A stretch of 37,929 nt of DNA from Candidatus Tayloriibacteriota bacterium (GTDB lineage: Bacteria; Patescibacteriota; Minisyncoccia; Phycocordibacterales; JACOZD01). The DNA is taken from the NCBI GenBank assembly GCA_016181525.1, contig JACOZD010000022.1, positions 1 through 37,929 of the forward strand. Reading direction: 5' to 3'. The position numbers were made by a program. Positions 21,001-24,000 of this stretch are shown piece by piece (within the stretch, counting starts at the first letter, position 1; the number at the start of each line of letters is the position of its first letter).

Positions 21001-24000
21001 ATCGTCATCTATATCCCTGACCTCATTCAAAGGAGCTCTGCTAAACAGGGTGCGATTGACAATTTTAACCAAGCCCCAGACCGAGACCATGACCGCCAAA
21101 CCGATAATGCCGTAAAAAATGTAATCACGGGCCTCCTTGATTTTGTCCTCACTGCCGCCGGCCCGGACGTACTTAAGCAAACCCCACATAAAAGTCACGA
21201 CCGCCAGAGTCACAATGAGCGGGATAACTTTATCCAGGACACCTATGAATTTGCTGACGACGTCGGCGAAGGTCTTCATTTTCAAAAGCCGGGGCCAAAC
21301 GGCCCGCCAATTTCCTTAATTGTTCCTCGGATAACCTCGGCAATGAGCTTGGCGCCGAGGAGAATGGCTGTGCCGATGACCGTGCCGAAGAAGGTCGCCC
21401 GGGCAGTCTTCAACTTTTCGGTGTCGCCCCGAGCGCTGACGAAGAGAAAGCCGGAATAGACAAAGAAGAAAACGGCGATGACGGCGCCAATGTTCACCAC
21501 GATGTCCAAAATGGCGGCGATGAAGCCCTGGATGCTGTCGTATTTGAGAGGGTTGTCCAGTTTCATCTCTTTATTTTAACAGCGAATAACTCGAGTCCTC
21601 AAGCAAAGCACTAGTGATGGCGAAGACCACAAGCCAAGCCGAGAGCATAACAACAAATCCCAAAATCACCTTGGTGAAAATCCGCCTGGCCTCGGCCATC
21701 TTGCCGGTGTCGCCGGCGGCGGTCATGTACTTAATGCCGGCATAAGCGAAAACAGCCGCCGAGACGGGCACGGCGATGATGATGAGGTAGTTGATGACGC
21801 GGCGAATGAGGGCGACCAGTTCATCGAAGTCGCACTCCTCTACAAACTCGCCGGTTCTCCGGTCGAGTTCTTGACTGCACTGAACGAGGGACTTGTCATC
21901 CCCATCGGCCGAGACGAGAGTCGGCGCGGCCGAGACGAGCAAAAAAAGCAGGAGCGCAGTGACCGCAATCATTTGGGATAAAGGACGCATTTATGGATTA
22001 TATCTTCCCACAAGTTCAGAAATTTCCAAACTGGCGCGTTTGACGGCTTCAGAGACCGACTTCTCGCCGCTCCCGACCGCCTCAATCATCTCGGCAAACA
22101 GCCGCCGGCTCTCGGCGGGCGCGGGGTCGAGCCAGGAGCGGGCGCGCAGAGCGGCTCGATAAACCGTCTCGCGCGAAGCTTCCCCCGCTCCGGCGACCCG
22201 GCCGTCTGGCGAGACTCGCTCCGGAGGAGCGGCGAGAAGCGAGCGGGCGGCCGGAGCGAGTGACGAAAATTTAGAAACTTGGCCGAGAAAGTCGGCGCTC
22301 GAAAGCAATCCGGCCGCCCGCGAGGCGGCGGCGAGGTTGCGGGAGCTCTTAATGATAGCCGCGCCCATGACCCGGCCGAAAGTAATCCTGCGCCGGCCGG
22401 GGGATAGCAGAGGCAGTTCGGCCACGTCGAAGTTAAGGTTGGGGTTTGAGGCCTTGAGCAGTTCGGCCTCGGAGCCGAGACCGAGATAAAGAGCCAGGTC
22501 TCCGGCCAGAAAGAAGTCGCGCGAAGCCGGCAGAGAGCGGTTCCAGGCGTAATTATCCCGGCGGGGGTTGGAGAAAGAAGTATAGAAGGCGAGCGCCTCC
22601 TCGGCCGGCACCCTGCGCTCGGCCTTACGGTCGAGAACACTCAAGAGATAGCCGCTTTCTTCGGCCACAATGGACGTGCCGGCTTGGAGAAACAACGCCG
22701 AAAGAATCTCCTTAAAGTTGGTGACATTCCTTGCCTCGCCCAAGGCGATGGCGCTGACGGCGACGTTGCCGTTGCGGTCGGAGTCGGAGAGTTTGGGCGA
22801 GAGAGTCACAACCTCCTCCCAGGTCGCGGGCGGCGAGGCCACGGCGACATCGGAGAGAAGGTCGCGATTCCAGTAAAGGATAAGCGGGTCAACGAACATG
22901 GGCAGAGCGTAAATAACGCCTTGTCCCAAGAAGACCTCGCCGCCCTCTACAAAAAATGACTTGAAGGAACGCTCGGAGAAAGAGGCAAAGGGGATGGGAA
23001 AGAGCTTATCACGGTGGCGGAGAATAGAGTCGGAGGGCAGAATGGCCAGGTCGGGACCACGGCCGGCGGCTAGGGCCTCAAGGAGCTCTTCGTCGAGGGT
23101 TCGGGCGTCTTTCTCCACATACTTTAAGCGCAGAGTTTTGCTCTCTTTGAAGTTGAGGTCAGAGACGGCCTCGGCCATATCGTCGGCTTTGACACTGCCC
23201 CACAAAACCACCTCGGAGAGCTCCTGCCGCCCGCCGCCGCCCAGAGCGGCAAACAAAACCAGACCGGCGATGATGGCCAGTCCGAAAACCGCAAGTAAAA
23301 TAATCTGAAAGTTACTCATTTCTTCCGCAAGATAAGTCCATAATGATAATCGCCGGCGCCAATCTCTCCCTCGAGCGAGAAACCGTGCTTCTCAAATAAT
23401 TTAAGCGCGTCCGAACGCGGCACGGCGCCGCTTTTTGGCCCTACTCCTCCGACTCCTCCGGCAGTCCAGTCGACAAGCAGGAGTCGGCCTCCGGGCTTCA
23501 AAATTCTTTTCACTTCCTCAACCAGAGCGTCATGGTCATCGGCCTGAAAGAGAACGTTGGAAAGGATGGCCCGCTCCACCGAGGCGTCGGACAGTTTCGT
23601 CCCCCCGCGCTTTTCAGCGTCTCCCAAAATTATCTCCACGTTCTCGAGACGCGCCGCCTTAGCCTGGTTTCGGATTCTTTCCAGGAGGTCGCGCTGGACG
23701 TCCACGGCGTAGACCCGGCCGAGCTCTCCCACCTTGCGGGCCAAAGCTAAAGTGTAAAAACCCGAGCCGGCGCCGATGTCAGCCACATGAAGGCCGGCAT
23801 AGACATCAAACTGCTCGATATTTGATTCGGGAGAAGTGAACATGCGTGACACCAATCTACGAATTCGCACGAATGACACGAATGTAGATTTATCAATTAT
23901 AAGTCCAGTGTCGCTTATTCCGAAACCGGCAATCCACATGCCTTGATGCAGAAATTGATGCAGAAAAGTGCAACACAGTTTTGTGCAACACTCGGTGTTG

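Follow-up and report, generated by a model that had tools for sequence, protein, structure and literature searches.

A membrane-anchored solute-binding protein gene is linked to an ordered array of VirB2-like pilin genes in Paceibacteria

Results

A solute-binding protein gene lies between a methyltransferase gene and five pilin-like genes

A contig of 37,929 nucleotides from a Candidatus Tayloriibacteriota bacterium (JACOZD010000022.1, assembly GCA_016181525.1) was analyzed over its whole length and is referred to below as the 38-kb window. Its minus strand carries a compact unit consisting of a methyltransferase gene, a gene for a solute-binding protein (SBP) and five small pilin-like genes. 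The SBP gene (21991-23319) encodes a membrane-anchored family-1 protein of 442 aa, which resembles MalE and other binding proteins of the carbohydrate uptake transporter 1 (CUT1) type. The first gene of the unit (23316-23843) encodes a class I S-adenosylmethionine (SAM)-dependent methyltransferase of 175 aa. These two genes share a 4-base ATGA overlap, in which AAG AAA TGA is overlapped by ATG AGT AAC, and the TAA stop of the SBP gene directly abuts the ATG of the first pilin-like gene. Both junctions had been described in a first-pass annotation of this DNA, together with an N-terminal transmembrane (TM) anchor on the SBP. The reading frame, the overlap and the abutting pilin-like gene were confirmed here, and a hydrophobic helix was found at residues 4-26 of the SBP.

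The five small genes fall into four classes, A to D, which are defined further below. Class A (21571-21990, 139 aa) combines a signal peptide, a two-Cys loop (C38...C53) and a VirB2-like two-helix hairpin. It is followed by class B (21282-21566, 94 aa, with an NPLK motif), two copies of class C (20956-21285, 109 aa, with a TTG start; 20485-20853, 122 aa, with a signal peptide) and class D (20256-20537, 93 aa from GTG 20537, without a signal peptide). The first-pass annotation had called the small 2-TM paralogues pilin-like, and all five products exceeded the gathering score of PF18895, the VirB2-like type IV secretion system (T4SS) family 'T4SS_pilin' (33–42 bits versus 26.6). In gene order the scores were 42.2, 34.4, 33.1, 38.2 and 38 bits, and class B additionally gave a weak TrbC/VirB2 match. 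The sequences read as two hydrophobic helices around a G-[DS]-x-E/K-rich loop, that is, as two-helix hairpins.

Some start sites within the array deserve mention. In the window, the class B and the first class C pilins begin at the mature region and have no signal peptide, while orthologues elsewhere have one, and the class B start lies only 4 nt from the preceding gene. Class D most likely starts at GTG 20537, which has GAGG 5' of it and overlaps the 3' end of the preceding class C gene by 53 nt. A longer ATG-initiated class D open reading frame (ORF; to 20675) is probably unused.

The SBP has a CUT1-type fold and a conserved membrane helix

The SBP was matched by the Pfam families SBP_bac_1 (40.9 bits, E 3.3e-10; gathering cut-off 26) and SBP_bac_8 (30.7 bits; cut-off 27). 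The possibility that its family match is not significant by hidden Markov model (HMM), which the first-pass annotation had raised, can thus be set aside. An AlphaFold2 model built on a 36-sequence alignment reached a predicted local distance difference test score (pLDDT) of 90.2 and a predicted template modelling score (pTM) of 0.86. It consists of a helix at residues 3-25, a short Gly-rich tether of low confidence and an alpha/beta body with two lobes. A Foldseek search of the PDB with this model returned MalE/maltose-binding protein (MBP), a cyclodextrin-binding protein and a trehalose/maltose-binding protein as top matches, together with other sugar SBPs (E ~1e-21, TM-score 0.6–0.8). When the family profile was compared with PDB sequences, a carbohydrate-type SBP, 4r9f 'MBP1', was matched over its full length (E 2.6e-18). 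By sequence and predicted fold, the protein is a genuine CUT1-type SBP. In MalE/MBP, W62, W230 and W340 stack on maltose, and the acidic residues D65 and E111 belong to the cleft; a further reference point is the D14/K15 loop. When a HMMER alignment to MalE was used to map our protein onto these positions, acidic residues resembling D65 and E111 were found to be kept.

The family has sequence features of its own. Invariant motifs are WG, PD, DP..Y.N, W167, G.xxN, FYTQFSNP..YSWN, GFASE, NPNLNF, LPP.RR and WLDP; three of them can be written as the family-specific motifs FYTQFSNP..YSWNRSLP, LPPxRRDLL and WLDP. The N-terminus follows the consensus M-S-x-F-Q-x-I-L-L, and the window SBP contains no Cys or lipobox. 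The TM helix itself is conserved. Over 342 distinct sequences, conservation reached 0.95 at F4, 0.86 at Q5, 0.87 at F12, 0.64 at G19 and 0.88 at F23, and these residues form a stripe on one helical face. Such a conserved face exceeds what a passive anchor needs, which suggests that the helix packs against a partner helix.

We also considered a type IV pilin-like (class III) signal on the SBP, which would have linked it to the archaeal bindosome or to N-methylation by the neighboring methyltransferase. This was rejected, because the residue before F4 is variable, without a conserved Gly, and there is no Glu at +5. The window protein carries an insertion of ~12–15 aa near residues 366-380 (window 22180-22225; RVSPDGRVAGAGEAS), which is present in 0 of 35 aligned homologues and is modelled with low confidence. 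The GC content of positions 22001-23000, the part of the SBP gene with this insertion, is unusually high (0.62).

The methyltransferase matched Methyltransf_11, Methyltransf_25 and Methyltransf_31 of Pfam with 61–64 bits (E ~1e-17). The SAM motif I (VADIGAGSG) of this Rossmann-type domain is visible, and homologues of 174–179 aa support the ATG at 23843 as its start. The best PDB relative, 3dh0, is an uncharacterised SAM methyltransferase (E 6e-17). Searches of NCBIfam, PDB and PHROGs for substrate hints gave generic class I matches only, and every NCBIfam match stayed far below its cut-off, so no equivalog-level assignment was obtained. The protein has no signal peptide or TM segment. It could therefore reach only the cytoplasmic loops of pilins.

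The SBP gene is followed by a pilin gene in all related loci

SBP relatives were collected in several ways. Among the 289 matches of a word-indexed homologue search, the 120 that were listed are full-length (413–445 aa), 39–46% identical and carry the same SBP domains; their named sources are Parcubacteria, Patescibacteria and Yonath-, Wolfe-, Zambryski- or Pacebacteria. At E<=1e-30, an exhaustive profile search gave 1872 cluster representatives (clustering at 50% identity). When one genome per GTDB species was scanned, at least 560 relatives turned up, of which the best 80 loci were kept with flanks of 10 kb. The resulting sample of 84 non-redundant Paceibacteria loci includes the window and comes entirely from one deep lineage. 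ORF calls in these loci were searched with HMMs built from the window genes and the first homologues. Many of the records are titled 'Candidatus Saccharibacteria'. These titles were treated as generic and not as true taxonomy, since the loci are up to 94% identical to, and interleaved with, loci titled Paceibacterota or Parcubacteria.

A PF18895-type gene was found directly 3' of the SBP gene in 79/79 loci with at least 700 bp of downstream sequence. The gap between the two genes measured −11 to +24 bp in 62 of the 79, with many overlaps of 4 or 1 bases. A methyltransferase gene lies directly 5' of the SBP gene in 69/81 loci, 17 of which have the identical 4-base overlap, and gyrA was found upstream in 68/70. 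Precomputed Pfam annotations, available for seven independent contigs, are in line with this survey. Recurrence in every one of the 79 related loci puts the SBP-pilin arrangement far beyond chance.

In three loci the surroundings were rearranged. In L017, genes for MreC and PBP2 lie upstream of an intact methyltransferase-SBP-pilin block. In L085, this place is taken by a type IV pilin and an Ig-like/SpaA-like surface protein, and in L088 gyrA and the methyltransferase gene are separated by 7.5 kb of unrelated genes. The block stayed together in all three. The median identity among genomes with the module is 69% for GyrA and 43% for the SBP, which fits a fast-evolving surface component kept over a deep lineage.

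The pilin array consists of four classes in fixed order

All-against-all clustering of 422 array proteins separated four pilin classes, each tied to an array position and to a conserved motif of its own, and the order was then read with class-specific HMMs. Class A, with signal peptide, two-Cys loop and hairpin, occupies position 1 in 75 loci. Class B, with the NPLK motif, occupies position 2 in 74/79 loci. Class C (motif FfwG...FVmvSvwG) fills positions 3–5 with 2–4 copies per locus, and class D (median length 92 aa, no signal peptide, motif IlnPl....) is last in 68 loci. The most frequent orders were ABCCCD (27 loci), ABCCD (21 loci, the window among them) and ABCCCCD (11 loci). Most remaining strings are explained by contig ends or by an extra letter from a spurious low-score match. 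Orthologous classes in a fixed order point to a defined hetero-assembly, comparable to major and minor subunits, and not to free variation of paralogues.

Pilin variants occur in other genomes (L018 12275-13210; L085 11285-13341; L017 11299-13376). These include a tandem double class-C pilin in one 311-aa ORF, and array proteins at positions 1–3 with N-terminal extensions (212–388 aa). A phage origin of the module was also considered; it was dropped, as PHROGs gave no matches for the SBP or the pilins.

Natural fusions join the SBP to the class A pilin

Further support for a link between the SBP and the array is provided by three proteins from at least two lineages, P0286 (568 aa), P0287 (560 aa) and P0228 (579 aa), each of which contains a complete SBP and a class A pilin. 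The window SBP aligned to residues 1-423 of P0286 (E 7e-102) and the window class A pilin to residues 482-561 (43% identity, E 1e-19). P0286 and P0287 are 66% identical, and each was recovered twice, once from an NCBI genome assembly and once from a Logan assembly made independently from a different read set. Their loci have no free class A gene and show the order methyltransferase, SBP::A, B, C, C, D. P0228 is only 37–38% identical to these two and has a different linker, and therefore appears to be an independent fusion event; as it is known from one contig of 1.95 kb only, it is the weaker evidence. An apparent SBP-pilin fusion in L018 proved to be an artefact, in which the ORF crosses a masked run of N translated as X.

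In an AlphaFold2 model of P0287, the SBP body is followed by a linker of ~40 aa with low confidence, then by a short beta-hairpin, located at the Cys loop, and by a pair of long helices with pLDDT 79–90. The fusions imply that the C-terminus of the SBP and the N-terminus of the mature class A pilin lie on the same, outer side of the membrane. The fusion protein is thus tethered to the membrane at both ends, which argues against a place of the SBP at the end of a long filament and favors a complex close to the membrane.

Transporter and secretion genes in the neighborhood

The first-pass annotation had remarked that neither an ABC permease nor an ABC ATPase follows the SBP gene. Pfam scans of 39 ORFs found no such gene anywhere in the 38-kb window. 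Within 10 kb of the SBP gene, a CUT1 permease with an EAA motif was present in 0 of the 84 loci. In none of these loci does the homologue adjoin a CUT1-type permease gene, contrary to what would be expected if the window locus were the remnant of a rearrangement. Among polytopic ORFs with four or more TM segments in the same flanks, no conserved permease-like or VirB6-like family was found. An ABC ATPase was present in 2 of the 84 loci, at 8–10 kb from the SBP gene. Clusters of large ORFs in these flanks correspond to IF-2, an aminotransferase, an M50 peptidase, ClpB, LeuRS, Band_7 proteins and unknowns. VirB3 and VirB8 genes of T4SS were found neither in the window nor within 10 kb in the 84 loci, and PilB/PilC-like genes were likewise not found in the neighborhood of these loci.

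One of the genomes with a fusion (L088, 16731-18174) encodes a 239-aa BPD_transp_1 permease and a 244-aa ABC ATPase on the other strand, 5–6 kb downstream, with no adjacent SBP. From sequence and size we take this pair to be TauC/SsuC-like and not CUT1. It was discarded as a hidden partner, since phmmer found the permease in no other surveyed locus and not in the window.

The unit is set apart from gyrA by a structured spacer

Upstream of the methyltransferase gene lies gyrA (24031-26502, minus strand), beyond a spacer of 187 bp (23844-24030, minus strand). A perfect stem-loop of ~20 bp (UGUGCAACACUCGGUGUU/AACACCGAGUGUUGCACA; also read GTGCAACACTCGGTGTT...AACACCGAGTGTTGCAC) was found right after the gyrA stop (23990-24030, minus strand), and a third partial copy of the repeat (GTGTTGCAC) just downstream of it. 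The spacer folds with −71.2 kcal/mol (z −5.05 versus shuffles). The stem-loop probably separates the gyrA transcript from the methyltransferase-SBP-pilin unit, or else acts as an operator; as a separator it may be a terminator that lacks an evident T-run. A consensus scan found no strong terminator-like site between the methyltransferase, SBP and first pilin genes. A sigma-70-like site that matches the consensus only (TTGAGC-17-TATAAT, 20939-20911) lies 5' of the last two pilin genes.

Discussion

A probable role as dedicated subunit of a pilin module

We consider it probable that the SBP serves as a dedicated extracytoplasmic subunit in a module specific to Paceibacteria, which is made of four VirB2-like classes, and that it is placed next to class A. 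The unit would be encoded as methyltransferase, SBP, pilin A, pilin B, pilin C (2–4 copies) and pilin D, with genes that are co-transcribed and translationally coupled. The conserved N-terminal helix of the SBP would be inserted in the membrane with its MalE-like bilobed domain outside, and the four classes of two-helix proteins would insert beside it. The SBP would sit beside class A, and its F4/Q5/F12/G19/F23 face may pack on the pilin hairpins. Given its CUT1 ancestry, the bilobed domain would most likely capture a carbohydrate or a host-surface glycan, and this capture would couple the pilin-based structure to host or substrate, either for adhesion or to take up material that comes from the host. 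Whether a ligand, probably a carbohydrate, is captured in this way and independently of an ABC transporter is in our judgment evenly balanced.

The first-pass annotation had proposed the SBP as an accessory subunit, a receptor, an adhesin, a tip subunit or a sensor. Linkage and fusions support a subunit that serves the small 2-TM proteins, as accessory, receptor or adhesin, and the conserved anchor and the tether at both ends of the fusions weaken the tip. Its broader idea, that the combination of methyltransferase, SBP and 2-TM paralogues represents an undescribed surface or secretion module, gains from the adjacency, its persistence after rearrangement and the fusions.

Several observations weigh against a dedicated pilin-module subunit. 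In our alignment with MalE, conservation is lost at the positions that correspond to W62, W230, W340 and the D14/K15 loop. The P0287 model has a pTM of 0.71, and with its low-confidence linker no fixed SBP-pilin interface is predicted. VirB4, VirD4 and VirB6 genes were found neither within 10 kb of the SBP gene in the 84 loci nor in the window, and the methyltransferase gene is missing in 12/81 loci. The orphan status of the SBP is shown for its neighborhood, and a few ABC proteins per Patescibacteria genome have been reported in published surveys (PMC7137472). Finally, genes for S1, Lactamase_B_3, a small protein and GyrA are also syntenic in most of the 84 loci. As these flanking housekeeping genes keep their place as well, adjacency alone could reflect phylogenetic inertia, and only the three rearranged loci and the fusions counter this.

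Alternative explanations

The SBP could instead belong to an ordinary ABC importer and deliver sugar to CUT1 permeases and an ATPase whose genes lie at another place in the genome; its position before the array would then be an inherited order. Other bacteria are known to have orphan SBP genes whose products work with transporters encoded at a distance. The protein is a bona fide member of SBP_bac_1 and SBP_bac_8 with a MalE-like predicted fold, its homologues are annotated as multiple-sugar or glycerol-3-phosphate SBP in the source records, and the synteny of the flanking genes fits such an inherited order. Metabolic surveys, in the text available, count the KEGG orthology (KO) group of such SBPs, K02027, as sugar transport (PMC7137472, PMC12361377), but the same portions name the SBP KO and not the permease KOs. 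We nevertheless regard this explanation as unlikely. Partner genes were found neither in the 38-kb window nor within 10 kb of the SBP gene in the 84 loci. The block keeps together when it is moved, and translational coupling to pilin A is widespread. Moreover, fusion to pilin A would be pointless for a freely docking SBP.

The fusions also bear on two explanations that draw on analogy. Pilin systems with dedicated maturation factors, such as TraQ/TraX and TraF, are known, and OppA and MalE show chaperone-like peptide binding. By analogy, the SBP fold could serve as an extracytoplasmic chaperone or assembly platform, which like TraQ of the F-pilin would bind the exposed N-terminal or Cys-loop peptide of class A and other pilins during membrane insertion, maturation or polymerisation, with the methyltransferase modifying the pilins. 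Consistent with this, the SBP gene stands at the head of the array and is coupled to pilin A, fusion is specifically to class A, and the conserved TM stripe suggests a helix-helix contact. A chaperone permanently fused to one substrate molecule would be unusual, however, and the closest relatives are carbohydrate-type (CUT1) and not peptide-type SBPs. Pilin processing would have to be assumed, and a methyltransferase without signal peptide or TM segment would reach cytoplasmic loops only. Such a biogenesis factor therefore seems quite unlikely to us. The other analogy starts from ABC importers, where an SBP that is fused to a membrane protein identifies the latter as its translocator partner; in the present fusions the SBP is joined to pilin A. 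A hetero-oligomeric channel of a new type might accordingly be formed by five to seven 2-TM proteins (10–14 helices), fed by the SBP as in importers of the GlnPQ/OpuA type and energized by a remote ATPase or the proton-motive force. The fixed subunit classes and order and the lack of a nearby T4SS ATPase gene are compatible with it, and the retained anchor and double tether of the fusion favor a membrane-embedded place over a filament tip. On the other side, no role other than that of pilus subunits is known for PF18895/TrbC-type proteins, no energizing component is linked, and the idea, channel formation included, is drawn entirely from analogy; we hold it to be very unlikely.

A wider proposal can be formulated. 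The SBP and the four ordered VirB2-like 2-TM classes might be an unrecognized binding-protein-dependent envelope machine of Paceibacteria, with which these metabolically dependent cells would import or capture host material without a classical ABC transporter. It could be built as an SBP-fed hetero-oligomeric membrane conduit, or as a short pilin stalk with a glycan receptor, and the methyltransferase would modify cytoplasmic loops. We put this forward as a doubtful, speculative extension.

Comparison with known systems

With SBPs of CUT1 ABC importers, such as E. coli MalE and 4r9f 'MBP1', the window protein shares the Pfam families, the bilobed type-II periplasmic-binding-protein fold and, by our mapping, equivalents of the acidic residues D65 and E111. 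It differs in that adjacent MalF/MalG-type permeases or an ATPase were not found (84 loci, 10 kb), in the conserved face of its TM anchor and its family-specific motifs, and in always being co-encoded, sometimes fused, with a VirB2-like pilin.

In GlnPQ and OpuA, which are ABC importers, substrate-binding domains are fused to the membrane domain, and PilB and PilC of Streptococcus sanguinis are modular pilins with a grafted binding domain. The covalent joining of a binding module to a membrane or filament subunit in these proteins resembles P0228, P0286 and P0287. The partner here, however, is a 2-TM VirB2-like protein and not an ABC membrane domain or a type IV pilin. Fusion is also exceptional; the two proteins are normally encoded by separate genes.

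Arrays of 2–11 VirB2-like pilin genes, often near virB4, have been described in genomes of the candidate phyla radiation (CPR), most abundantly in Microgenomates and Saccharibacteria, and were read as a possible host adaptation (PMC12102498). In Ca. Southlakia epibionticum a series of pilins lies inside an essential T4SS cluster (PMC10633639). These Patescibacteria arrays share with ours PF18895, tandem divergent paralogues and monoderm CPR hosts. In contrast to them, the present module has no VirB4, VirB6 or VirD4 gene within 10 kb and consists of four fixed, ordered classes headed by an SBP and a methyltransferase; neither PMC12102498 nor PMC10633639 mentions a solute-binding protein. A sugar-type SBP tied to small pilin-like membrane proteins is also found in the Sulfolobus bindosome (Bas), where sugar-binding proteins are assembled at the surface with such proteins (PMC3047682), and its setting, a monoderm cell with an S-layer-type envelope, can be counted as a further likeness. 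The bindosome has class III signal peptides, a type-IV-pilus-like BasE/F ATPase and platform, and SBPs that still feed ABC transporters, whereas here the small proteins are of the VirB2/TrbC type, no prepilin motif is found on the SBP and no assembly ATPase is linked. On the evidence of its neighborhood, the module lacks the defining features of a classical CUT1 operon, a T4SS cluster and the bindosome and is a member of none of them. Full-text searches for literature linking Patescibacteria, a solute-binding protein and a pilin returned nothing. The SBP-pilin link is thus undescribed within the searched literature.

Patescibacteria (CPR) are unable to synthesize the majority of their building blocks, and the route of uptake from their hosts is an open question. 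The SBP family studied here, with its 1872 representatives at 50% identity, is routinely annotated and counted as ABC sugar uptake. In the available portions of PMC7137472 and PMC12361377, K02027 is counted among the functions that Patescibacteria retain, as a 'multiple sugar transport system', and no permease KOs are named beside it there. Should the SBP in truth belong to a VirB2-like pilin module, sugar transport is overestimated in these metabolic reconstructions. Pilin-like arrays, found to be essential in the only CPR organism in which this was examined (PMC10633639), would gain a concrete and tractable handle in a soluble, easily expressed ligand-binding domain, whose ligand, once identified, could reveal what the arrays recognize or move. 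The fixed A-B-C-D architecture also differs from the 'antigenic variation / host range' reading in the literature.

Flanking genes and further features of the window

Two genes on the plus strand converge on the 3' end of the array. They encode an SPFH/Band_7 protein (approximately 18662-19645; Band_7, E 3.9e-17) and a membrane-anchored protein of 182 aa without an assigned family (19652-20200). Many loci have a divergent Band_7 gene that is convergent with the array, and an association of the Band_7 and 182-aa pair with the module is possible. In many loci (e.g. L001 13533-14678, L030 13833-15008 and L029 13842-15074), a very divergent membrane protein of ~390–410 aa is encoded directly after the array on the opposite strand, with the divergent Band_7 gene next to it. 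It has four or more TM segments and no Pfam match, and in the window the 182-aa protein occupies its place. An ES...GVYMIN-like pattern led us to consider this converging protein as a VirB1-like lytic transglycosylase; this was not supported, given the lack of a Pfam match and a family alignment that is 21% identical. It also showed no significant similarity to the window protein with a weak SLT_2 match.

A second SPFH/Band_7 gene lies at 4338-6071 (plus strand), together with a gene for a 198-aa paralogue of the 19652-20200 product (35% identity over 94 aa, E 5e-10). This pair converges on a gene for a 385-aa protein (6123-7280, minus strand) with a sub-threshold SLT_2 (lytic transglycosylase) match, and the layout mirrors that at the end of the array. 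Besides the two SPFH/Band_7 genes, the Pfam scans identified housekeeping genes for KsgA, ribosomal protein L25, glycolysis and pentose-phosphate enzymes, RF, S1, Pth, signal peptidase, YbeY, FtsA and FtsZ. The gene for an AbiEii toxin, a type IV toxin-antitoxin nucleotidyltransferase (14497-15168, minus strand), sits within a run of genes of sugar-phosphate metabolism, which encode RpiB, Rpe, transketolase and GAPDH. Between 36001 and 37000 the GC content falls to 0.36, compared to a window average of ~0.53. This drop coincides with a gene for a 397-aa protein (35927-37120, plus strand) with weak matches to Kre9/KNH-like Ig domains, which may be a foreign or a surface-protein gene.

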